51,894 nucleotides of DNA from Enterobacter phage Ec_L1. Shown piece by piece: positions 1-51,894 of the stretch. The notes below the pieces were generated by a model, which worked only from the letters and a program-made list of their open reading frames with translations, was not told the DNA's origin and made no database searches. The position numbers and the translations under genes are program-made. The stretch lies in the sequence record NC_042122.1, one strand, 5' to 3'. How positions within the stretch are numbered: position 1 is the stretch's first letter; the number at the start of each line of letters is the position of its first letter.

Positions 1-353
1 CGTTAGAGTCAAAGCGAAGGTCTGGACGGCAATAGGTTGCTCGGAATCCTTGGCACTTATTCCGGACATAGTCGCGATGAATCGCCATAGCTCCTGACAC
101 AGAAATCATACCACGCTTGCGCCATTCGTAAAGTGTGGCGTGCGAGATCTTAATGGCCTTGACAAGTGCAGCGGGTGAGCCGTAGTATTCAATCACTTTT
201 TCAAGGCGGTGAGCTAATCCGGCCTTTACCTCATCTTTCAGAACGTAATAGCCAGTTGGCTTTTTGCGCGCTTTCTTATCAGCGCCGCGTGAAGTCCCGT
301 TGTTACCGTTGAGAGAGCGCTTATCGACAGCGCCGGATTTAGTCAGTTTCGTC
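1..353 (-). CDS. Partial (3'-truncated by window edge) small HTH DNA-binding protein, Cro/CI/XRE-like
   Basis: Minus-strand ORF starting at the ATG at 353-351 with RBS gaggaaaatatc, and open to the window edge. Helix-turn-helix-like segment GSPAALVKAIKISHATLYEWRKRG. Divergent from the helicase promoter at 368. Confidence 0.45.
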
Positions 354-367
354 ATGATATTTTCCTC

Positions 368-412
368 AATAGCACTTTTTGTTAAACCATTCGTCTTGTT
401 GAGTGTTATTAT
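368..412 (+). promoter_or_regulatory. early promoter cassette P1: AATAGCACTTTTTGTTAAAC, 19-nt spacer, TGtTATTAT
   Basis: 20-bp palindromic element followed by an extended -10; no -35 at 17 bp. Confidence 0.6.
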
Positions 413-450
413 ATCGGAATATTACTGCAAACGTAAGAGATAAATACGCT

Positions 451-2484
451 ATGACTATGAGCATTCAAAAGCAAATCGCCGCTCTTGATCCTGCATACAT
501 GAAGCGAATCAAAGAGCGATTCACATTTGGCGATGTGGTTCCATACGACTACCAGGTTGTGATGTACGGAGAGACGGCTAAGCGTATCGCCAACTATGAG
601 CATCCTTTCTACATCAAGGCTTCAGTTTCTGCTGGTAAGACAGTTGGCTTTGCTATGGTGGCGGCTCAGTGCCAGGTTATGAATCTGCCCATGCTTATTC
701 TTGCTAGACAGGCCGAGATTGTTCAGCAGGATAGCGAAGAGCTTTCAAACTTTGGCGTTAAAAACTCCGTTTATTGCGCCGGACTGAACACCAAATCTGC
801 ATACTTCCCGATCGTTGTTGGCTCTGAGGGTTCGGTGGCTAACGGCCTGGATAAGGCGCTGTCAGACTTCTATCCGATGGTTGTCGGAATTGATGAGTGT
901 CACCAGGTGGATTGGGAAGATCTGGCAGAGGCGATTGAGAACAACGAGTCACGGGAGTTGATGTCAAGAGCTAAAGATAAGCCATTCATGGTTAATGATC
1001 ATCCGGTTCCCGAAGATTACAAGCCTCATGATTTTGACGTTGTTGAGTACGGAACAGGGAGAGCGCAGTACACAATAATAATCATGGAATTGATGCGTCG
1101 TTGCCGTGAGCGGTACGGACGAGAACTTCGAGTCTTTGGGATGACTGGATCTGAATTTCGCGGAGTTGTTCCAATCCTGGTTGAAGATAAGAAACATCGC
1201 GGCTTCTGGCGCGAGCAGGTTACGGACATCAACACATCATACCTTGTTGATTTCGGATCTGTTGTGCCAACAATCTTCGGAGGCACCGATGGACTGAAAT
1301 ACGATCTGGATGAGTTTAAGGCGTCCGGTCAGGACGGAACGGCTGATTTCGGCTCGAAAGAAATGAAAGCAATGGAGAAGAAAATCCATGAATCAGCGAG
1401 CCTGACCAAGCAGATCATGACCAAGGTTGCAGCTATGGCGGAGACCCGTAACGCCGTCCTGATAACTTGCGCGGGGCAGCGACATTGTAAGGAGGCGGCT
1501 GAGTCGTTGCCACCTGGCAGCACTTACGCGATCATTACCGAAAAGACTAACGCCAAGAAGCGACAGCAGATCTTGGATGACGTAAGGGCGGGTAAAATAA
1601 AATACACGTTCCAGGTTATGGCTTTGACTACTGGAGTCAACGTTCCAAACTGGGATTTCAGCGTCATCCTTCGCAAGATCGGGAGCCTGACATTGCTTAT
1701 CCAGTTGCTTGGTAGAGGTATGCGACTGCTCAAAAAGCAACAGATTGAAATGGGGATGGTCAAGAATGACCACCTGGTATGGGACTTTGCCGGAACGATG
1801 GACGAACTCGGACAGCTTTACTTTGATCCGATTCTTGAACAGTACCAATATCAGCGTAAAGGAGACCGCACAAAAGACCAGGAAAAATGCCCTTTATGCG
1901 GGACGATGAATAGTGGGTTTGCTCGCCGCTGTATGCACAGAGACGAACACGGAAACCGTTGTGAGTATTTCTGGAAGTCTCAGATCTGCTCTGATATCGT
2001 CGACAAGAGAACAGGGGCAATCATCAAGAAAGGTTGCGGAACCGAAAATGATGTGGTAGCAAGAGTATGCAGGTGCTGTGACGCAACTCTAATCGATCCT
2101 AACAAGAATCTATCCGGAAAGATGTACACCAAAAACGACTGGTGTGACGTTCTTGATTTCAAGGTCGGGATGACCAAAAGCCAGACTGGAATATTGTATC
2201 ATTACAGGCTTCGTGACGCCGTTGGGGTTGAATTTGACGCTGTAGAGAAGTTCTTTCCAGAGAGCGATAACAAGATCTGTAAGACGCTTTGGCGGACAAA
2301 GGGGGTTACTCCTCACGTAGTCGGAAAGGACAATCGTAACTTGCTCGGACTGACGAAAAACGCCGTCAAGATCATGAGCATGAAACATTTAATTCTCGCC
2401 CCTTCTCGCGTAACTCACAGAAAGAACGGGAAAGGTGAGGACATCATTAGCCGAAAAGATTTTGGAGGGGAAATTGATAACTGA
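451..2484 (+). CDS. SF2 DEAH-box helicase with C-terminal Cys-rich zinc-ribbon region
   Basis: Walker A SAGKTVGF and DECH box GIDECHQV. Helicase C motifs, then several CxxC pairs. Start moved to the ATG at 451 because the listed GTG at 403 lies inside the promoter -10 region. Confidence 0.8.
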   Translation: MTMSIQKQIAALDPAYMKRIKERFTFGDVVPYDYQVVMYGETAKRIANYEHPFYIKASVSAGKTVGFAMVAAQCQVMNLPMLILARQAEIVQQDSEELSNFGVKNSVYCAGLNTKSAYFPIVVGSEGSVANGLDKALSDFYPMVVGIDECHQVDWEDLAEAIENNESRELMSRAKDKPFMVNDHPVPEDYKPHDFDVVEYGTGRAQYTIIIMELMRRCRERYGRELRVFGMTGSEFRGVVPILVEDKKHRGFWREQVTDINTSYLVDFGSVVPTIFGGTDGLKYDLDEFKASGQDGTADFGSKEMKAMEKKIHESASLTKQIMTKVAAMAETRNAVLITCAGQRHCKEAAESLPPGSTYAIITEKTNAKKRQQILDDVRAGKIKYTFQVMALTTGVNVPNWDFSVILRKIGSLTLLIQLLGRGMRLLKKQQIEMGMVKNDHLVWDFAGTMDELGQLYFDPILEQYQYQRKGDRTKDQEKCPLCGTMNSGFARRCMHRDEHGNRCEYFWKSQICSDIVDKRTGAIIKKGCGTENDVVARVCRCCDATLIDPNKNLSGKMYTKNDWCDVLDFKVGMTKSQTGILYHYRLRDAVGVEFDAVEKFFPESDNKICKTLWRTKGVTPHVVGKDNRNLLGLTKNAVKIMSMKHLILAPSRVTHRKNGKGEDIISRKDFGGEIDN

Positions 2485-2960: not shown

Positions 2961-3692
2961 ATGAAAGACGTTGCAGACAAAGACACCCATGACGCTTTTG
3001 TCACTTTTGAACAGCTTGAGCGTGAGAACTTCATCACCAACGCGCTTGTTCCTGGATGCGGTCATTATTCAGCCGTCAAGCCTGAAACATACTATCGCGT
3101 TTCCGGTCATCGTTATTTGGGTAGCAAGACACCTGATATCGTTCGCGACTTGTGGGCTACTGATCGCGAAGTTATTGAGTATATGGAAAAGCGTTTCGGC
3201 AAGTACGATCTTGACGCGGCGGCAAGCGAAAGTAACGCGGTTTGTGAAAAGTTCTACGACGAAAAAACCGACTGCCTGAAACGCTGGTGGGGCAAGAACA
3301 AGCACGTTTGGCTCAACCCTCCATACTCGCACCCTGACGTTTTCGTAAAGAAAGCCATTGAGCAAATGGAGCATGGAAATCAGATTGACATGCTACTGCC
3401 TGGCGATAACTCTACGGCATGGTTCGCTGAAGCTCGCCGTAATGCCGCTGAAATCATCTGGATCGAGGGCGATATTGAAATCGTCGACGGCGTAGAGTAT
3501 GCCAGAACCGGACGGCTATCTTTCATCTCGGCTCTCACCGGAAAGCCAGTTGACGGAAATAACAAAGGCTCTGTGATCTTTATCATGCGAGAGCTTGAAG
3601 AGGGTGAGGAGCAGAAAACTCACTACATCCCAATTACTGAAATTTGCCCAGGCGTAAGCCGCAAGCGTGCTAAGAAACGGAGCGTAAAATAA
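2961..3692 (+). CDS. dam: DNA N6-adenine methyltransferase (phage Dam family)
   Basis: NPPY catalytic motif (WLNPPYSHP). RBS aggagattgatt before the ATG at 2961. The listed start at 2922 would lie inside the promoter -10. Confidence 0.8.
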   Translation: MKDVADKDTHDAFVTFEQLERENFITNALVPGCGHYSAVKPETYYRVSGHRYLGSKTPDIVRDLWATDREVIEYMEKRFGKYDLDAAASESNAVCEKFYDEKTDCLKRWWGKNKHVWLNPPYSHPDVFVKKAIEQMEHGNQIDMLLPGDNSTAWFAEARRNAAEIIWIEGDIEIVDGVEYARTGRLSFISALTGKPVDGNNKGSVIFIMRELEEGEEQKTHYIPITEICPGVSRKRAKKRSVK

Positions 3693-8637: not shown

Positions 8638-8666
8638 GGATAGCACCTCTCGTTTCGATGGAGCCA

Positions 8667-8710
8667 ATATAACAAAACCCGCCGAAGCGGGTTTGACAAA
8701 AAGTGCTATT
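8667..8710 (-). promoter_or_regulatory. early promoter cassette P13 (minus strand) with embedded terminator hairpin
   Basis: AATAGCACTTTTTGTCAAAC, then CCCGCTTCGGCGGG-TTTT, then TGtTATATT. Confidence 0.55.
8678..8695 (-). terminator. terminator hairpin CCCGCTTCGGCGGG + TTTT (inside P13 spacer)
   Basis: UUCG tetraloop hairpin plus a T-run on the minus strand. Confidence 0.55.
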
Positions 8711-9257: not shown

Positions 9258-10838
9258 TTACCCCAGTAGACGAGGGTTAATGTAAACGTCATCACCAATC
9301 AGGCAGACGTACCCTAATCCCTCAAGCCTTGGTAGCAGGTGATCACGAATGCGCTTCGTAACTCCAGACTGACCAAAGAAAGGCTTGATCTTTCGCACAC
9401 CCTCATAGATTGAGCGGAACTTGATCACGCCTTTCGCGTTCTTCCCTCGCTTAACGATGAAGTCAACCAATACCCTCATTTCAGCGTCATCACCAGCATG
9501 ACCAGCCGAGTTAGCGGATGAAAGATAGGTCTTGCTCAGTTCATAGAACATCGCAACCGCCTCCTGCATGGTGTCAAGATCGATCGTCTTTGACTTCTGA
9601 GGATTAGAGTTATCGCTTGACCAGTTCCGGATCACGTGAATTACGGATGCGATTCGAATTGCCTGCTTGTCAAACTTACCCATAGCCCCGCGCAACATCG
9701 TGTGAGAATACTTCCCGCCGTCAGCCAAGTGCGGCTCCATCTCCTGGCGCGCTCGGTTCAGGTACTTCATTGCAGCAGTTCCAACTTTCAGCTTGATATC
9801 TGTCTCGCTCATGATCTCGTGAATCAGCTTGTAGTATTTCGCGACAAGCTCACTGTCGATAGGGGTGTATGTGCTGTTACCCTTCTCGTCAACAAACTTA
9901 CGGCGACCGAGATATGATTCTTCTCGAACCAGCAAGAAACGCTCTGAAACACCGATACCGCGTGAACCAGCCGCCATAATGCCCTCAATCGTCTCGTCCT
10001 GAGCAATGACCGCAATGGCACCCATGGCAACAAAACTCATGTTGTTGTCAGCGTTTGCACGAGCGATAGATACGTGCCCGCTATCCCAGGCCTTAAGGAC
10101 AAGCTCACTGTTCGTTTTCCGGCTCGCGTCCTGGTATGTCATACCAAGAAGGGAGTTAATACTCGTCGCCTCATCGGATATTACCGAGAAGTTGCCTTGA
10201 CGGTTGTTGATTCGCGCCAATCCTTCTGGCGTGGTATCGGATACGGGAAAAACGATGTCGCACATCTTTTCTAACTTCTCCTCCAGATCTTCCAACTCCT
10301 CATAAAGCGAGGCGAGATCGGACTTTGATTTCTCTCCCTTAAGTTCAGTTTTGCAGGCTGAGATCTTAGCCATTAAACGCTTGCGCTCCTTCTTGCGCTG
10401 CTCGTTAATGCGATCAACTTCTGCAATCATTGGTTTGATTGCCATTGAGTTAATGGCTGATTTCCCTGTCGACGGCGGCTGACTGGTCACGACATAAAGT
10501 GATGTTGGCTGGTCTGTTCCGTGATAGTCAACGGTGAATCTCCCCAGCATTGCAGCAGACACGCACGCCAGGAAGTGCATGTATGCGGATGACTCCGGAA
10601 ACTGAACAGAACGCGCCGCGTTAGCAGATAGCTTTCCGACGATGTCCAGATCGTTACCGAGGGAGATTACCGGATATTTATCATTGCCGCCGTCAACGTC
10701 CTTAACTTCCGTCCAGAATGACGAAGAGTGACGATAACCATTAGCCTTGATTGCCACGCGAAGAGGTGAGATCCCCTCATTCTCTGCGATAACAATAATC
10801 TGCTGCGGCGTCATGGTTTGTTGCATGTTGTCAAACAT
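9258..10838 (-). CDS. replicative helicase-like protein, DUF3987 / P4-alpha C-terminal (SF3-like) family
   Basis: Walker A QPPSTGKS and Walker B VISDEAT, separated by a charged coiled-coil insert. 526 aa. RBS aaggagcaaag. Confidence 0.6.
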   Translation of the reverse strand: MFDNMQQTMTPQQIIVIAENEGISPLRVAIKANGYRHSSSFWTEVKDVDGGNDKYPVISLGNDLDIVGKLSANAARSVQFPESSAYMHFLACVSAAMLGRFTVDYHGTDQPTSLYVVTSQPPSTGKSAINSMAIKPMIAEVDRINEQRKKERKRLMAKISACKTELKGEKSKSDLASLYEELEDLEEKLEKMCDIVFPVSDTTPEGLARINNRQGNFSVISDEATSINSLLGMTYQDASRKTNSELVLKAWDSGHVSIARANADNNMSFVAMGAIAVIAQDETIEGIMAAGSRGIGVSERFLLVREESYLGRRKFVDEKGNSTYTPIDSELVAKYYKLIHEIMSETDIKLKVGTAAMKYLNRARQEMEPHLADGGKYSHTMLRGAMGKFDKQAIRIASVIHVIRNWSSDNSNPQKSKTIDLDTMQEAVAMFYELSKTYLSSANSAGHAGDDAEMRVLVDFIVKRGKNAKGVIKFRSIYEGVRKIKPFFGQSGVTKRIRDHLLPRLEGLGYVCLIGDDVYINPRLLG

Positions 10839-11331: not shown

Positions 11332-11368
11332 TTTGAGATCCTCTTGTTGTCTCGTTTCGATGGGGCTA

Positions 11369-11412
11369 ATGTAACAAAACCCGCCGAAGCGGGTTTAACA
11401 AAAAGTGCTATT
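11369..11412 (-). promoter_or_regulatory. early promoter cassette P14 (minus strand) with embedded terminator hairpin
   Basis: Roughly 60-bp near-repeat of the P13 module. Confidence 0.55.
11380..11397 (-). terminator. terminator hairpin CCCGCTTCGGCGGG + TTTT (inside P14 spacer)
   Basis: Identical to the hairpin at 8678. Confidence 0.55.
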
Positions 11413-15386: not shown

Positions 15387-15430
15387 TGATAGCGCATCAC
15401 CCCGAACGCGTTTTAACAAAAAGTGCTATT
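15387..15430 (-). promoter_or_regulatory. early promoter cassette P17 (minus strand)
   Basis: AATAGCACTTTTTGTTAAAAC, 17 nt, TATCAT. Hairpin GGGGT..ACCCC around the -10. Confidence 0.5.
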
Positions 15431-15671
15431 GAACCGGATCACCATCAAGCAACTCAGTTACAGCGTCAACGATGCAATGAGCTTGGGTTTGAGGCTTAAA
15501 ACCAGCCTTGACGATACGCCATTTCTTACCGCCGCAATGCTCAACCTTTAACTGCTTATCGCCACGCTTAACGCGGAAGTATTTGCGTTCAAGCATACCC
15601 TCCGTGAATGTAGCCCCAACAACTACGCCATTGTCAGTGGCAAAATCGATCGCGCCTTGAATAGTTACCAT
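15426..15671 (-). CDS. hypothetical protein
   Basis: RBS ggaggcgcatc; first gene after P18. Confidence 0.5.
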   Translation of the reverse strand: MVTIQGAIDFATDNGVVVGATFTEGMLERKYFRVKRGDKQLKVEHCGGKKWRIVKAGFKPQTQAHCIVDAVTELLDGDPVQ

Positions 15672-15698
15672 GATGCGCCTCCTATGTTCCGATGAGAT

Positions 15699-15744
15699 GA
15701 TTATGCACCATTCGAGCCTGATTGGTTTAGCAAAAAGTGCTATT
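15699..15744 (-). promoter_or_regulatory. early promoter cassette P18 (minus strand; leftward promoter of divergent control region)
   Basis: AATAGCACTTTTTGCTAAAC, 19 nt, TGcATAATC. Confidence 0.55.
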
Positions 15745-15929
15745 TCTCGCAGAGTGTCAAAATGACTATATTGTTGCTGTATTGTTCATGATCTCATAAC
15801 ACTGTTGCTCATATAGCAATAGTGATTGTTGCTGTGATTGCAAAAGTCGACTCTCATTATTGCCTGATATGCATTAAGTTGAGAGGGGTAGAGATGGTGT
15901 TTCGCTGTTCGCCTGGTGCTCGTGGAAAT

Positions 15930-16465
15930 TTCTGTGGAGGATTTGGGGAAAGTTACGGAGGATTTTTCGGACTCAATGCAGCGAACCATTCAGAGATAAC
16001 GCTCATCGTTTCCCCTCCCTGGTGTGCGTGATGTGCTGCGGAGGGTTGCGGAGGATTACGGAGGATTTGCAATTCGGCTCTAGCCCTTGGTGCGTCTGGT
16101 CTGCGAGAGATTTACGCCGGATAATGTCGATTTTTGTGCTGGGGCTGGTATATGTATACATAGAGAAATGATGTGAAAGTGATGTGCTCATACACGTAGA
16201 GAAAAAATGCAATAGTCCAATAATCCGCATAATCCTCCGTAAACTATGAAGAGAGAGACATATACCAATAGAGTAATATAGTAATAATATATATAAAAAC
16301 CCTTATATTACATATATATATAGTATTATTATATACTATTGTATATGAGTTGCTTGGTCATAAAATGAGCTGATTTTACGGAGGATGGTTCCGGCGCAAT
16401 CCTCCGCGATTTAACTAAGTACATGATTTACAAGGCCGCATTTACGGAGGATTTTTTCCGCAAAA
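15930..16465. repeat. iteron cluster A: about 9 copies of (A/G)CGGAGG(A/G)TT in both orientations, flanking a roughly 90-bp AT-rich core (16258-16350); candidate replication origin
   Basis: Tandem block gcggagggttgcggaggattacggaggatt at 16038-16067. Inverted pair at 16381-16412. AT-rich tract with polypurine/polypyrimidine runs. No credible coding capacity. Confidence 0.6.
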
Positions 16466-16483
16466 ACACGTAAAACCGCCCAA

Positions 16484-16528
16484 AATAGCACTTTTTGCTA
16501 AAACAGCACCCCTGGCTTTTGGTATTAT
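16484..16528 (+). promoter_or_regulatory. early promoter cassette P4 (AATAGCACTTTTTGCTAAAAC + TGgTATTAT)
   Basis: Rightward promoter of the divergent control region. Confidence 0.6.
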
Positions 16529-16564
16529 TATCTCAACGAAACGAAAGGCACAAAGGAAAACGTC

Positions 16565-16843
16565 ATGAAACTTAAGCGCGAAGCAATCAAACTCGGTAGC
16601 GAATACAACGGCAAGTGGAACTTTGTCATCATGGATAACGACGCCGAGAAGATCGAAGTTGTTGAAGAGGCGCTTTGTGCAATGGATACTGGCTTCTCCC
16701 TCGGTGGCGAAGAGAAAACCTGGGGCGACTACTGCGACCAATGCCCTTGCTATGAAGATGGTTATGGCTCCGGCTTCTGGATTGAGATCGAAGATGTTCC
16801 AGCATTCAAAGAAGCATACAAGGCCGCGAAGAAATCCATCTGA
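16565..16843 (+). CDS. small acidic protein (possible DNA-mimic-type accessory protein)
   Basis: 92 aa, about 24% Asp/Glu. First gene rightward of the control region. Its stop TGA abuts the next promoter cassette. Confidence 0.5.
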   Translation: MKLKREAIKLGSEYNGKWNFVIMDNDAEKIEVVEEALCAMDTGFSLGGEEKTWGDYCDQCPCYEDGYGSGFWIEIEDVPAFKEAYKAAKKSI

Positions 16844-47990: not shown

Positions 47991-48425
47991 TTAGAACGGG
48001 ATATCGTCGTCGAAATCCATTGGTGGGTTGTTTTGAGGCTTAGGCTTGCTTTGCTGCTGTCGCTGTTGCTGGTTTCCTTGTGGCTGTTGTGGCTCGCCCC
48101 AGCCGCCGCTCTGCTGTTGTGATCGCTGACTGAAGATCAGTTGGGCGAATCCGGCTGGCTGCAACGTTACATACGTCGTGCCATTGTGATCTCGGATATT
48201 TGTTTTTAACTGATCGCATTGAACCGTAATCACCTTCCCAACCTGGAACGCGTCGCGATACCAGTTTAGTAGGCCGTCAGTCTTTGCGTTGAAAAAGAAC
48301 GTGTAGTTCGTATACTCTCGCGTACCTTCACGGTTCTTGTAAGACTCGCTCAACTCAACGATGAACGTTGTTTCGTTGTGGATGCGAGGCTCTTTCCGGA
48401 TCTCGCCAGTAATGATATGTGGCAT
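47991..48425 (-). CDS. ssb: single-stranded DNA-binding protein
   Basis: OB-fold N-terminus, Gln/Gly-rich linker and a C-terminal acidic tail ending DFDDDIPF. Confidence 0.9.
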   Translation of the reverse strand: MPHIITGEIRKEPRIHNETTFIVELSESYKNREGTREYTNYTFFFNAKTDGLLNWYRDAFQVGKVITVQCDQLKTNIRDHNGTTYVTLQPAGFAQLIFSQRSQQQSGGWGEPQQPQGNQQQRQQQSKPKPQNNPPMDFDDDIPF

Positions 48426-48469: not shown

Positions 48470-49141
48470 TTAATCGAAGCTCTCAATATTTTGAGGCTCA
48501 GGTTGTTTTTTGGTTTCAGGTTCGGATTTTACCGCATCCTTTGACTTGCTTACAACTTTCTTTTGAACAGCAGCAAAACCTCCATTAGTGCCAACAGTCA
48601 ATGAGGCTTTACGCTTCTCATAATGCTCCTGAATAATAGGCTTATCGACTGGGCTTGAAGCGCCCCATGCCTTTTTGAACTGCTCTGCGAGTTCTTCCAT
48701 ATTTTCACATTTGTCAAGTCGCTTATTCCAGTCCTTGGCGCTCATTACGGCAACCTGTGCGTCATCGTCTGCCTGAGACAAACCAAGAGCAGAAACAAGA
48801 CCGTATCGACGGGCATAAGTGAAAGCCGATCCCATACCTTGAGGGTCAGCCTTTACTACAGGGAGCACCGTTAGGTATGAAATGAACTGTCCTGAAACAT
48901 GCCGGATTGTGGTAATAACGCGAATTTCTTTGCTGTTACTCTCCTCCGTCATCGACTGCTCAATCATGAGCATCTCACTTTCAAGAGGTGGCGTAACGGT
49001 ATCAAGGACGCTGTCGAGGGTCGCATACTTACCCTTGCCAGCACCTCCGTTAATCTTGTCTTTCAGAACCTTAACGAATTTCTGACGCGCCCTGAATATG
49101 GCTGGGAATAACTCGCTGGTCATGTTTGATTGCATTTTCAT
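48470..49141 (-). CDS. ssDNA-annealing recombinase (Erf/Rad52-like SSAP)
   Basis: 223 aa. Conserved-looking FTYARRYGLVSALGL block. Positioned between the exonuclease and SSB genes. Confidence 0.55.
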   Translation of the reverse strand: MKMQSNMTSELFPAIFRARQKFVKVLKDKINGGAGKGKYATLDSVLDTVTPPLESEMLMIEQSMTEESNSKEIRVITTIRHVSGQFISYLTVLPVVKADPQGMGSAFTYARRYGLVSALGLSQADDDAQVAVMSAKDWNKRLDKCENMEELAEQFKKAWGASSPVDKPIIQEHYEKRKASLTVGTNGGFAAVQKKVVSKSKDAVKSEPETKKQPEPQNIESFD

Positions 49142-49200: not shown

Positions 49201-50247
49201 TTAGTTATCTTGAGTGAATAACTCCTTAAACTGATACTTGACAAATTCAGGAGTTGGCAGAACAACCTCATCGGCGTTGTTTTCATAGCTAGGCCAAACG
49301 TCATGCTTCACACATTCAGAGAAAACATGAATCACGCTTGTGTACTGCTGTCGACCAATGGCTAACTGCTCATTTGTCATGGTGAACCCAAGCGGAAGAT
49401 ATGGGACTTTCTTTTCCTGAGCAAGGAATCGTATAACGATCGGTCGAGTCTCCTCAAATGCAGCCTTGAACAGATCTCTCTGTAGAGCCATCTTTAAGTA
49501 ATAGCCCAGGTTAAACGCGTGACGCGCAAAATCAGACGGCTTCACACTCTGAGTGGTCTTGTAATCAGTTATTACAACAATCTCAGGGTTAATATCAGGA
49601 TCGTAGCCATATTTTTTGATTAACTCCGGATCGGTTATTGTGTCTACGTGGTCAAGTCGAACCTTAACCTTAACCCCGAAAATGATCCCAAAGATTGATA
49701 TCTCACGCAATGCCGTATGGCTGTTTATCGTTGCGGCATGGCGAGGTATGTTAAGCAGCGTTTGGCGCATGTACTTGCAGGCGTCGTAATCCTCAGCCTT
49801 TACAAGCTCCTTACCTTCATGCTTTGCATTCCACTCAGCCAACATCTCTTCAAGCCACAACACATTGACCTCAATGTCGTTCTTTGCCGCCATAACCAGC
49901 AATTCAGGATAACCCTTTCCACTTGTACCAATCAGGCCGCATGCTTTCAGCTTGGAAGCGAGAGCGGATTGGCTTGTGATGCAGTCTTTGATCTCGCCAG
50001 CCATAACACCGCGAGCGTAAAGGCTATCGAACTTCTCAACCTCCAGCATCATGGTATGCGACTGTGTTCCGAATGCAAGAGCCTTACTCAATTCTCTGAT
50101 CCTGAATTTCCAGTCTGCCGGACATGTGGCATGAATATCAGCGAGAGAAGAACCTGAGACGTATTCTGAAACCCAACCCTCTGAGGCGTGGTATTCGTCG
50201 TTTGTCATTTCCTCGTTGAGGAAGTATTGAAAGCGAGGCTGTTCCAT
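49201..50247 (-). CDS. RecE/RecB-family PD-(D/E)xK exonuclease
   Basis: VVITDYKTT motif. Start refined to the ATG at 50247 with RBS aaaaggagtcatac. The listed start at 50295 lies upstream of the promoter -10. Confidence 0.7.
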   Translation of the reverse strand: MEQPRFQYFLNEEMTNDEYHASEGWVSEYVSGSSLADIHATCPADWKFRIRELSKALAFGTQSHTMMLEVEKFDSLYARGVMAGEIKDCITSQSALASKLKACGLIGTSGKGYPELLVMAAKNDIEVNVLWLEEMLAEWNAKHEGKELVKAEDYDACKYMRQTLLNIPRHAATINSHTALREISIFGIIFGVKVKVRLDHVDTITDPELIKKYGYDPDINPEIVVITDYKTTQSVKPSDFARHAFNLGYYLKMALQRDLFKAAFEETRPIVIRFLAQEKKVPYLPLGFTMTNEQLAIGRQQYTSVIHVFSECVKHDVWPSYENNADEVVLPTPEFVKYQFKELFTQDN

Positions 50248-50278
50248 GTATGACTCCTTTTGTGTGCGTGTGCGATGC

Positions 50279-50320
50279 AGTATACCCGATCTCATTCGTT
50301 GCGTTTAGCAAAAAGTGCTC
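50279..50320 (-). promoter_or_regulatory. early promoter cassette P19 (minus strand; exo-SSAP-ssb operon)
   Basis: GAGCACTTTTTGCTAAAC, 18 nt, TATACT, RBS aaaaggag. Confidence 0.55.
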
Positions 50321-50327
50321 ATTTTTA

Positions 50328-50795
50328 CTCAACGGAGGATTGCGGAAATTTACGGAGGATTCAAAAACAGCCTCCAGGCCTTGGTGTTACTGGCCTAAAC
50401 GACAATCTACGCCGGAAAATGTCGATTTTTGCGCTCTATAGATACCAAATTCACCAAAAACAGGCATGAAAAAAGATCCGACAACACAATAATCAACATA
50501 ATCCTCCGTAAATAAATAATACATACTACACATATAATAATAATATCTATATATATTAGATACTTATGTATGTCTAAAGGTTGAAAATAGCTCATTATTT
50601 GAGCGATTTTTGCGGAGGATTGATCCGGCGTAAATTCCGCAAATTCTGTAAGTGACTGATTTTGTTGAATGCAATTGCGGAGGATTTTTCGTTAAATCTC
50701 CCTTAAATCCGGCTTGTTTAAGTTTGTTAAATCTTTTTGTGGAGGATTGCGGAGGATTGCGGAGGGTTTACGGAGGGTTTACGGAGGATTTTTCC
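50328..50795. repeat. iteron cluster B: about 10 copies of the same GGAGGATT iteron (five tandem at 50739-50790, 10-11 bp period) plus AT-rich core (50500-50575); paralog of cluster A
   Basis: Shares non-iteron blocks with A: TACGCCGGA(T/A)AATGTCGATTTTTG(T/C)GC and ATAATCCTCCGTAAA. Confidence 0.6.
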
Positions 50796-50796
50796 G

Positions 50797-50825
50797 GCGT
50801 AAAAAAACCCGCCGAAGCGGGTTAG
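50797..50825 (-). terminator. terminator CCCGCTTCGGCGGG + T7 after primase gene (minus strand)
   Basis: Fourth copy of the same hairpin. Confidence 0.65.
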
Positions 50826-51760
50826 TTTTTGCGGTTGATTAAGACAAGTGGATCGTAAAGCGCTCGCTTGCAACCCGACTTGAATCCTGACTGGTCACTG
50901 TTTGGAATGATAACCTTTAACTCTCGGTCATCTGCCATATAAAGCGTATCTAAGTCATTAGACGGGCAAGCAACCCTCAACTCTCGCTCTCCTGTATACC
51001 TGTAAGCAACGATCTCAAGGTTGCTCGGTTCGATACAAGCCCAGCACTCCTGGCCTGTTGCATTATGAACCCTAACGGCGTCATACCACGAGTTGACCAG
51101 ATAGATCGCCTTATCAGTGCTGCCGACCTTTATCACCGCGCCTCGAGTGTAATCCTTGGCGTAGAACCGATCATTTCCGAGTTCATCTATGATCAGTAGG
51201 TTGCAAAACTCGTCGTCGAGTTCTTCACCCTGAACAAGCTGCATCGGGAGTACGTGAAAAACGCTCTCATCTCCATTCTCAAGGGTTTTCACACCCACAT
51301 CGAATGATTCACCTATAAGACCTTCAAAAATCGTTAGCGGAGTTTGTGCTCGCTTTTCGGTGCGGTCTAATATCGCCTGGCACTTGTCATGCTCCGCCGT
51401 AGCCCCGAATGAATAGCCTGGGTCTTTTGCAGCCCTCTTGTTCTGTTTGATAACGTACTCTTGCGGAACCTTTCCGAGGAATCGACCAAGAATGTTAATG
51501 CACTCGCTGTAAGGCTCTCCGGATAACTTCATCAACCAACCGATCCCCTTATCAGCGCCGCAATTATTGCAGTACGCCCAACCATCACCAACCTTGTTAT
51601 CTTTTTTATTCGTCCAACGAAATCTATCCTTACCTCCGCAGTGAGGGCAATCCTGGTGCTTGCCGTTGAAGTATTTCGAATTCAGGCCGCAAATGCTTTG
51701 CAATGCGTCCTGCCACATGTTGGACATGTACGGGATCACGTCCTCCTCTTGATACATCAT
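50822..51760 (-). CDS. DNA primase (zinc-finger CxxC...CxxC N-terminal domain, P4-alpha/primase-like)
   Basis: DCPHCGGKDRFRW...CNNCG zinc finger. The listed start at 51799 lies inside the promoter -10. Real start is probably ATG 51760, 51757 or 51727; start uncertain. Confidence 0.55.
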   Translation of the reverse strand: MMYQEEDVIPYMSNMWQDALQSICGLNSKYFNGKHQDCPHCGGKDRFRWTNKKDNKVGDGWAYCNNCGADKGIGWLMKLSGEPYSECINILGRFLGKVPQEYVIKQNKRAAKDPGYSFGATAEHDKCQAILDRTEKRAQTPLTIFEGLIGESFDVGVKTLENGDESVFHVLPMQLVQGEELDDEFCNLLIIDELGNDRFYAKDYTRGAVIKVGSTDKAIYLVNSWYDAVRVHNATGQECWACIEPSNLEIVAYRYTGERELRVACPSNDLDTLYMADDRELKVIIPNSDQSGFKSGCKRALYDPLVLINRKN

Positions 51761-51797
51761 CACTTTTATATTCTCCAAAATAGAAACGGGCGCGATC

Positions 51798-51843
51798 ATA
51801 ATAACCGCGCCCGCTTGGGATTGCTTAGCTTTTTGTGCTTATT
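51798..51843 (-). promoter_or_regulatory. degenerate early promoter cassette P20 (minus strand; primase)
   Basis: AATAAGCACAAAAAGCTAAGC, about 19 nt, TTATTAT, enclosed in hairpin GGGCGCG/CGCGCCC. Confidence 0.4.
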
Positions 51844-51894
51844 TCACCACTCTCAACATCTCACGCCGATCGCATCGTGTGGTAAGAGCCTTTC

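Follow-up and report, generated by a model that had tools for sequence, protein, structure and literature searches.

Twin iteron and AT-rich modules are candidate replication origins in the T1-like phage Ec_L1

T1 belongs to the seven classic T phages, and the Drexlerviridae are common in phage therapy collections and common, too, as laboratory contaminants. Where do phages of this kind begin to replicate their DNA? Our search of the literature for a T1-like replication origin or iterons found none described; the paper on phage SU57 reports that no origin was found (PMC7718038), and the 2024 re-annotation of TLS states that there are no iterons anywhere in the TLS genome (PMC11447400). The question is raised by a non-coding gap in Enterobacter phage Ec_L1. 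The whole stretch of DNA that we analyzed (NC_042122.1, 51,894 nt; hereafter the window) is a complete T1-like siphovirus genome (Drexlerviridae), and it is circularly closed because a 136-aa gene reads across the window junction (355..1 into 51894..51839, minus strand). Its closest relative in GenBank is Enterobacter phage Phc, of the genus Eclunavirus. An initial annotation, made from the letters alone, had read a gap between divergent gene cassettes as an origin that depends on an initiator protein. The layout on which this reading was built proved to be real, highly non-random, duplicated and family-wide, and as an origin it is partly supported by what the sequence suggests. GC skew was of no help in this analysis: it switches sign at this gap and tracks gene orientation, and as a mirror of gene orientation and transcription it carries no origin information, so we dropped it as an origin marker.

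The gap had been described as ~890 bp of non-coding DNA and measures 893 bp (gap A, Table 1). The homologous gap in Phc is without an annotated feature, and in gap A we found neither convincing internal promoters nor a conserved open reading frame. Within it, module A spans ~15930-16460, with an iteron cluster at 15934-16453. About nine iterons had been counted, and nine is the number that we obtained, made up of seven exact copies of CGGAGGRTT and two with one mismatch. They lie at 15934 (+), 15955 (+), 16038, 16048 and 16058 (all +), 16231 (-), 16378 (+), 16398 (-) and 16444 (+). The tandem triple among them was confirmed as described, and so was the inverted pair to the right of the core, for which our coordinates are 16378-16407. 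The AT-rich core is also real and provides the least stable 60-bp and 100-bp duplexes of the genome (z = 6.9 and 7.0). The polypurine run that had been assigned to it amounts to merely ~13 nt (GAAGAGAGAGACA, 16249-16261).

Table 1 Genes, promoter elements and repeat features of the Ec_L1 window
Feature	Position	Strand	Remarks
SNF2-type helicase gene	403-2484		Pfam/PHROGs
DUF3987 helicase gene	9258-10838	-	Pfam; candidate initiator; modeled MCM-like AAA+ core and C-terminal winged helix (aa 450-520)
Non-coding gap A	15672-16564		893 bp; between leftward ORF 15426-15671 and rightward DUF5417 gene 16565-16843
Leftward T1-like 21-nt promoter-associated element AAATAGCACTTTTTGCTAAAC	15725-15747	-	Left bound of gap A
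Separate left stretch	15760-15916		ATTGTTGCTGT twice (15770, 15825), hairpin 15800-15824, conserved block 15878-15916
Iteron pair GTGGAGGATT, ACGGAGGATT	15934-15964	+	21 bp apart; kept in Phc and L123
Three tandem iterons	16038-16067	+	Spacing 10 bp
24-bp box TACGCCGGATAATGTCGATTTTTG, copy 1	16113-16136	+	One of only two in the genome; kept in Phc and L119
Inverted iteron	16231-16240	-	Touches left edge of AT core A
AT-rich core A	16258-16355		Candidate DNA-unwinding element; up to 89% AT over 70 bp; z = 6.9
Inverted iteron pair around TCCGGCG box (16390-16396)	16378-16407		Right of core A; matching arrangement in module B
Rightmost iteron of module A	16444-16453	+	~30 bp upstream of rightward promoter element
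Rightward 21-nt promoter element (16483-16503) and extended -10 TGGTATTAT (16520-16528)	16483-16528	+	
SSB gene	47991-48425		
Erf gene	48470-49141		
PD-(D/E)XK exonuclease VIII-like gene	49201-50295	-	
Non-coding gap B	50296-50821		Holds paralogous module B; between end of primase gene and exonuclease VIII operon
Leftward promoter element of exonuclease VIII-Erf-SSB operon	50305-50323	-	
Two iterons with a degenerate copy in between	50332-50361	+	
24-bp box TACGCCGGAAAATGTCGATTTTTG, copy 2	50408-50431	+	
Inverted iteron	50500-50509	-	Abuts AT core B
AT-rich core B	50508-50579		86% AT; second least stable duplex in the genome; z = 6.2
Iteron 50612, TCCGGCG box 50624-50630, degenerate inverted copy, iteron 50677	50612-50686	+	
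Five tandem iterons	50739-50790	+	Spacing 10, 10, 11 and 11 bp; four in Phc, the fifth being an alignment gap
Bidirectional terminator hairpin	50806-50823		Ends regulator-primase operon
Zn-ribbon primase gene	50822-51799	-	Directly upstream of module B in the Ec_L1 lineage
Cro-like helix-turn-helix protein gene, 136 aa (homologue of T1 gp23)	5' part 1..355, 3' part 51839..51894	-	Spans window junction

The earlier label "region A" implied a second region of which the origin claim made no use. Such a region is present, and it is essential to the argument: module B, at ~50330-50800 with an iteron cluster at 50332-50790, is a paralogue of module A, and in each module iterons stand on both sides of a ~90-bp core of 86-89% AT. 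The two modules (~450 bp) align collinearly with a mean column identity of 71% and many indels. Both begin with outer iterons, followed by the 24-bp box, an inverted iteron and the AT core, and continue to the right of the core with an iteron, the TCCGGCG box, an inverted iteron and further iterons. The iterons next to the cores face in opposite directions, from 16231 (-) on the left to 16378 (+) on the right in module A and from 50500 (-) to 50612 (+) in module B. The genome's only two copies of the 24-bp box, TACGCCGGAWAATGTCGATTTTTG, are those at 16113 and 50408, one per module.

We then compared these features with the rest of the genome. Exact CGGAGGRTT occurs 16 times in 51.9 kb, compared with 0.74 expected, and all 16 copies fall in clusters A and B; chance repeats are excluded because none of 100 shuffled sequences reached 16 copies. 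With up to one mismatch there are 9 iterons in A and 10 in B, and the density is 15.7 per kb within the modules versus 0.06 per kb elsewhere. Cores A and B are the only 70-bp stretches of the genome with at least 83% AT, and by nearest-neighbor duplex energy they score z = 6.9 and 6.2 versus 3.2 for the next segment. Each module of the genome accordingly combines the two marks of an iteron-type origin, a motif cluster beyond chance and an adjacent AT-rich element of low stability. Nearly every iteron position is kept in Phc and in the metagenomic relatives L050 and L123, the one exception seen being the tandem array of module B. In gap A, 85 of 90 iteron columns (94%) were invariant among three relatives versus 547 of 803 other columns (68%; Fisher p = 7e-9). 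Iteron columns in gap B were conserved no better than their surroundings (85% versus 86%), the whole region being uniformly conserved.

DNA-level homology was useless beyond the genus, since blastn with A and B recovered Phc alone among GenBank phages and nothing among plasmids. A scan of IMG/VR for the iteron tandem CGGAGGRTTNCGGAGGRTT returned 10 contigs, none of which shares a protein with the window, and we discarded them as chance or unrelated matches. We examined the architecture across the family in 80 Drexlerviridae loci centered on the SNF2 helicase and 24 centered on the DUF3987 helicase, taking the AT maximum over the whole 12-22-kb locus. The most AT-rich 70-bp window lay 222-346 bp (median 265) upstream of the exonuclease VIII start in all 65 loci that contain the exonuclease. 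Each helicase-centered locus that reached 4-6 kb upstream had exactly one AT core, in the divergent gap A, and the complete genomes of T1 and TLS have exactly two cores each, at homologous places. Module B goes with the exonuclease VIII operon in all lineages and not with the primase gene, which in T1 and TLS is ~5 kb off. While this architecture is conserved among relatives, the sequence of the iteron tracks the lineage: the repeat is CGGAGGATT in Ec_L1, ATCTTAC in Webervirus/F20, TAACA-type in T1, TGTTC/GAACA in TLS and many others, and AAAGTGCGG in L086. There are at least five iteron types, and in each lineage the modules are enriched for the repeats by 20- to 260-fold. Those around the TLS cores contradict the published statement that TLS lacks iterons (PMC11447400). 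A core motif is common to both gaps in the Ec_L1 lineage, T1 and Webervirus, and in most other paired contigs the similarity between the gaps is weak; distant lineages have a single TGCGGAGG-like box next to the core. Intermediate relatives carry two repeat types together, the CGGAG core being accompanied by AATCCTGTTTTTT in L119 and by TGTATGT in L122, and AATCCT/CCGTAA in the window corresponds to AATCCTGTTTTTTCCTCCGTAA in L119. A conserved architecture whose iteron changes with the lineage implies a binder that co-evolves with it.

Which protein might that be? Pfam and PHROGs assigned the replication genes of Ec_L1 to DUF3987, the Zn-ribbon primase, the SNF2-type helicase and the Cro-like helix-turn-helix family. 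The initial annotation had proposed the DUF3987 helicase and the primase as binders. The helicase stays a candidate on the strength of its predicted fold. Its structural model is confident (pLDDT 88, pTM 0.86), the top 50 PDB matches in a Foldseek search with the model were all MCM subunits, and residues 450-520 are modeled as a winged helix, a domain that ranks second in variability among 450 windows of 77 aa. Three lineages whose iterons differ have almost the same putative recognition helix in this protein. For the primase, nothing points to site-specific binding. In T1-like phages its match to a 667-position PHROG primase profile covers the N-terminal half of the profile, and in the GenBank record of T1 it is compared to alpha proteins of the P4 family. 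Missing from the proposed list was the Cro-like 136-aa protein, whose gene closely precedes the primase gene on the same strand and whose family is confined to ~50-kb contigs of T1-like phages. Its model has an all-alpha Cro fold (best match Xfaso-1 Cro, TM 0.76 on the target), with a basic N-terminal arm and a Cys-rich tail. Of 116 windows, the one with the helix-turn-helix ranks third in variability, and the recognition helix starts with the most variable column of the protein, where 10 different residues occur. At the sequence level, searching PDB chains with the helicase or the Cro-like protein yielded marginal matches only, which made the fold search necessary. We aligned the Cro-like protein, the primase and the helicase over 20 iteron classes, including the intermediates L119, L121 and L122, and computed the entropy of each column. 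The DNA-binding domains were the fast-evolving parts of the helicase and the Cro-like protein, a pattern confounded by phylogeny, and the relatives that keep CGGAG (L119 and L122) have the same or a similar Cro recognition helix. The argument from variability is a weak one, since control proteins contain single columns that are just as variable. No lineage-specific repeats other than the iterons were found in the loci examined that the variable surfaces could track.

Gap A consists of module A and a separate stretch at its left side, and the early transcription units that flank it are divergent. The 21-nt element at its borders was described for TLS (PMC11447400) and is constant across lineages. 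In Ec_L1 it takes the form of the dyad TAGCA-N5-TGCTA, and because a -10-like hexamer, often of the extended type, follows ~20 nt on, it behaves like a promoter class. Since the flanking promoters point outward, the transcriptional activation that had been suggested to help open the core is not obviously available. A short direct repeat, ATTGTTGCTGT, had likewise been counted as part of the origin; its two copies exist, at 15770 and 15825 and not at 15767 and 15823, yet they belong to the separate stretch at 15760-15916 and show no conservation in Phc. The block at 15878-15916 in this stretch has a conserved counterpart at T1 55-95. Both the T1 and the TLS record open within the homologue of 15760-15880, at a distance of ~190-200 bp from AT core A and amid a run of short GATT/GATG repeats. 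In the T1 record, position 1 is also where an annotated terminal repeat of 2.8 kb begins, and for TLS the pac site had been placed by restriction mapping. These starts are what could make gap A as a whole the pac region, its repeats serving as binding sites for the small terminase. For the iteron module we regard this as very unlikely: a pac site should be unique and lie at the physical end of the first-packaged genome, whereas the iteron/AT module occurs twice, with copy B far from the mapped ends, and the mapped ends themselves fall outside the module. It is the left stretch that this position makes the pac candidate; judged by homology, it is probably pac-proximal and separate from the iteron module. 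Still less probable, to the point of being negligible, is that the gap houses a non-coding RNA gene or a small protein gene, or that its repeats arose by chance. Conservation of 15878-16250 with Phc and an SD-like sequence with an ATG at 15884-15896 would fit a gene. However, the frame after this ATG is broken in Phc, modules A and B differ by many indels, no promoter stands out over shuffle controls, and the best matches in Rfam 15 score 17-22 bits against gathering thresholds of 50-56. We rejected coding sequence in the gap, as the open reading frames translate the iterons themselves and the frame is lost in Phc, and we rejected a non-coding RNA, as no Rfam family comes near its gathering score.

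Alternatively, the iterons could be sites through which the Cro-like protein controls the adjacent promoters, with the AT tract playing an architectural part, for example as bent DNA. This reading is compatible with an origin, and we hold it to be the main rival and a real, if minor, possibility. The element at 50305-50323 has iterons 50332 and 50352 directly upstream, iteron 16444 lies 30 bp upstream of 16483, and PHROGs calls the Cro-like family "transcriptional regulator"; the modeled fold of the protein is that of a true Cro, and its recognition helix is hypervariable. A regulatory role would also account equally well for the link between module B and the exonuclease VIII operon, which holds in 65 of 65 loci irrespective of the neighbor on the other side. 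A Cro-type operator array, however, would have dyad sites that overlap the core promoter. No iteron overlaps a promoter element or a -10, most are 100-500 bp from any promoter, and the copies run mostly head-to-tail at 10-11 bp spacing in place of the dyads expected of a Cro dimer, the sole dyad being the one inverted pair per module. Nor do operators need a 90-bp melting minimum of 86-90% AT, present exactly twice per genome across the family. The modules could also act solely in recombination or fork processing, supplying the RecE/Erf concatemer pathway as hot spots or as barriers occupied by protein, and have no part in initiating replication themselves. Module B always adjoins the exonuclease VIII-Erf-SSB operon, and SPP1 oriR has been proposed to be a fork barrier bound by gp38 (PMC6316719). 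We find this improbable, as it requires another origin, while nothing comparable to these repeats or to the AT tract exists elsewhere in the genome, and a fork barrier needs no unwinding element.

Iterons that flank an unwinding-type AT core, duplicated and lineage-specific, are what an initiator-dependent origin predicts, and we read A and B as replicator elements because their layout matches two known cases. In SPP1, a pac-type siphovirus, oriL and oriR are two similar modules of direct repeats with an AT-rich unwinding element, among the strongest AT islands of the genome (PMC6316719). In the proposed model one module fires while the other halts forks and so brings about a switch to recombination-dependent concatemer synthesis by an exonuclease, an annealing protein and SSB (PMC6316719). 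Ec_L1 likewise has two similar, collinear modules of repeats and a putative unwinding element (71% identity), one of which adjoins the exonuclease VIII-Erf-SSB operon. By contrast with SPP1, which has gp38, the loader gp39 and the DnaB-type helicase gp40, T1-like phages have a helicase that is MCM-like in its model, the Zn-ribbon primase and the Cro-like protein, and whereas oriL lies inside gene 38, both Ec_L1 modules are intergenic. The origins of SaPIs (staphylococcal pathogenicity islands; pri-rep-ori replicons) have 6-12 short iterons around a central AT-rich region, with at least two per side that face opposite ways. Initiation there falls to a self-loading helicase of the SF3 or the MCM-like SF6 class, whose C-terminal winged helix recognizes the iterons, and the primase is separate or fused (PMC9371898). 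The opposite-facing iterons around the cores of Ec_L1 are of this type, as is the predicted combination of an MCM-like helicase core and a C-terminal winged helix. A SaPI has a single ori immediately downstream of rep, with iterons of 5-6 nt. Ec_L1, by contrast, has two modules and iterons of 9-10 nt, and its helicase gene is 5-6 kb from A and ~10 kb from B; module B follows the primase gene in Ec_L1 and does not do so in T1 or TLS.

Satellite P4 and phage lambda provide more distant comparisons. P4 has two separate cis regions, ori and crr, with the same short iteron, TGTTCACC, bound by the alpha protein, a single polypeptide with primase, helicase and origin-binding functions; to our knowledge, crr has no AT-rich core of its own. 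The TGTTC-type iterons of many T1-like lineages are reminiscent of TGTTCACC, whereas the Ec_L1 iteron is unrelated to it. In T1-like phages there is no single SF3-class polypeptide of the P4 kind: these functions are divided over several genes, the helicase has an MCM-like modeled fold, and both modules have an AT core. The lambda origin lies inside the O gene in a single copy, with iterons on one side, and recruits host DnaB via P. It too places an iteron array beside an AT-rich unwinding region, and that array is read by a phage-encoded initiator. No homologues of lambda O or P were found in Ec_L1, where Pfam finds other families.

We put the probability at roughly 0.6 that A and B, as their sequence suggests, are a pair of initiator-dependent origins, or an origin and an auxiliary site as in SPP1 oriL/oriR. 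Each module is built on an easily melted AT core of ~90 bp, flanked on both sides by copies of a lineage-specific iteron of 9-10 bp that in Ec_L1 reads (A/G)CGGAGG(A/G)TT. One inverted iteron abuts the core, tandem arrays with 10-11-bp phasing are found farther out, and the modules share the 24-bp box and the inverted TCCGGCG motif. A phage-encoded, sequence-specific protein may coat the iterons and melt the core, the phage helicase and primase would then enter, and the host polymerase would carry out synthesis. The most likely candidate for the binding protein is the MCM-like DUF3987 helicase, which might act through its C-terminal winged helix like the Rep helicases of SaPIs; the Cro-like protein could bind alone or together with the helicase. 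Both modules may fire, or one may fire and the other serve as a second binding site, as proposed for SPP1.

A bolder version, offered as speculation and in our judgment unlikely to hold in full, has the two sister origins divide the labor. One would fire theta replication, and the module on the exonuclease side would be a programmed fork barrier, held by the same initiator, that switches replication to recombination-driven concatemers; specificity would be set by the helicase winged helix and a Cro-like partner that co-evolve. Such a protein pair would explain the two repeat types side by side in intermediate lineages and the fusion-like look of the 10-bp iteron of Ec_L1. If true, this would be an MCM-type initiator system of a bacterial virus with a dedicated specificity subunit.

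An origin composed of iterons and an unwinding element is textbook as a kind. What is new is the twin organization throughout the family, the lineage-specific iterons and the MCM-like helicase with a variable winged helix. On present sequence comparisons, the twin modules are the best candidates yet for the replication origins of T1-like phages, with precise, testable coordinates in every member of the family. The differences between genera amount to natural swaps of specificity that can be used in binding experiments, and the structural model points to a likely MCM-type self-loading helicase system in a coliphage. The modules may also be of use for the rational orientation of genomes, for engineering or attenuating therapeutic phages and for T1-based replicons.

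Modules A and B, the paralogous iteron clusters proposed as replication origins, each carry one of exactly two genome copies of a 24-bp box, TACGCCGGAWAATGTCGATTTTTG, with an inverted TCCGGCG on the opposite side of the core. CGCCGGA-type boxes recur in several further lineages. The boxes shared by the two modules may form a second protein-binding site. The iterons themselves vary among relatives. The tandem array has five copies in the window (50739-50790) versus four in Phc, its closest GenBank relative (3439-3480), indicating that copy number differs even among close relatives. In three intermediate relatives (L119, L121 and L122), the modules combine CGGAG-type repeats with AATCCTGTTTTTT or TGTATG-type repeats, and AATCCTGTTTTTTCCTCCGTAA of L119 reads like the window iteron AATCCTCCGTAA interrupted by an insertion.

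We also considered the stretch to the left of module A. At a distance of about 190-200 bp from AT core A, the GenBank records of T1 and TLS both begin among clustered short repeats of the GATT, GATG and TGTG kind. In the window, the homologous place, 15760-15880, holds two copies of ATTGTTGCTGT and a hairpin (15800-15824), and is a candidate pac region distinct from the iteron module. The ends of the window are an arbitrary cut: a Cro-like gene crosses the junction, and the window is therefore a circularly closed (permuted) complete genome. The block GTTGAGAGGGGTAGAGATGGTGTTTCGCTGTTCGCCTGG (15878-15916) is kept in Phc, in the metagenomic close relative L123 and in T1 (positions 55-95). It contains a Shine-Dalgarno-like sequence and an ATG; in Phc, the frame that follows is interrupted beyond about 9 codons.

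Coordinates of features in the window and in related phages
Feature	Genome	Positions	Remark
24-bp box	window	16113-16136; 50408-50431	conserved in Phc and the more distant L119
Inverted TCCGGCG	window	16390-16396; 50624-50630	
Two-repeat-type module	L119	11431-12009	
Two-repeat-type module	L122	7069-7872	
Two-repeat-type module	L121	11428-12084	
Short-repeat run at record start	T1	48790-48836 plus 1-60	
Short-repeat run at record start	TLS	49880-49902 plus 1-60	
Cro-like gene	window	1-355 plus 51839-51894	minus strand; 136 aa
21-nt repeat (examples)	window	369(+), 6770(+), 14072(-), 15743(-), 16485(+), 17230(+), 20583(+), 22231(+)	
Hairpin AACCCGCTTCGGCGGGTT	window	8660-8690; 11365-11390; 50806-50823	

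Finally, the T1-like 21-nt repeat, a TAGCA-N5-TGCTA dyad with two spacer variants (CTTTTT and CGAAT), is present at about 22 sites in the window, all of them intergenic. In every case its orientation matches the direction of transcription, and approximately 20 nt after it lies a -10-like hexamer, frequently of the extended type (TGGTATTAT, TGGTATAGT, TGCTATAGT). A recurrent hairpin, AACCCGCTTCGGCGGGTT, is located between the 21-nt element and its -10 in two of its three occurrences; the third copy (50806-50823) is a bidirectional terminator after the primase gene, and it shares with other phages a 31-bp match of 100% identity that takes in its flank. The 21-nt repeat and its downstream hexamer look like a phage-specific promoter class, a reading that bears on a question left by the 2024 re-annotation of TLS (PMC11447400).
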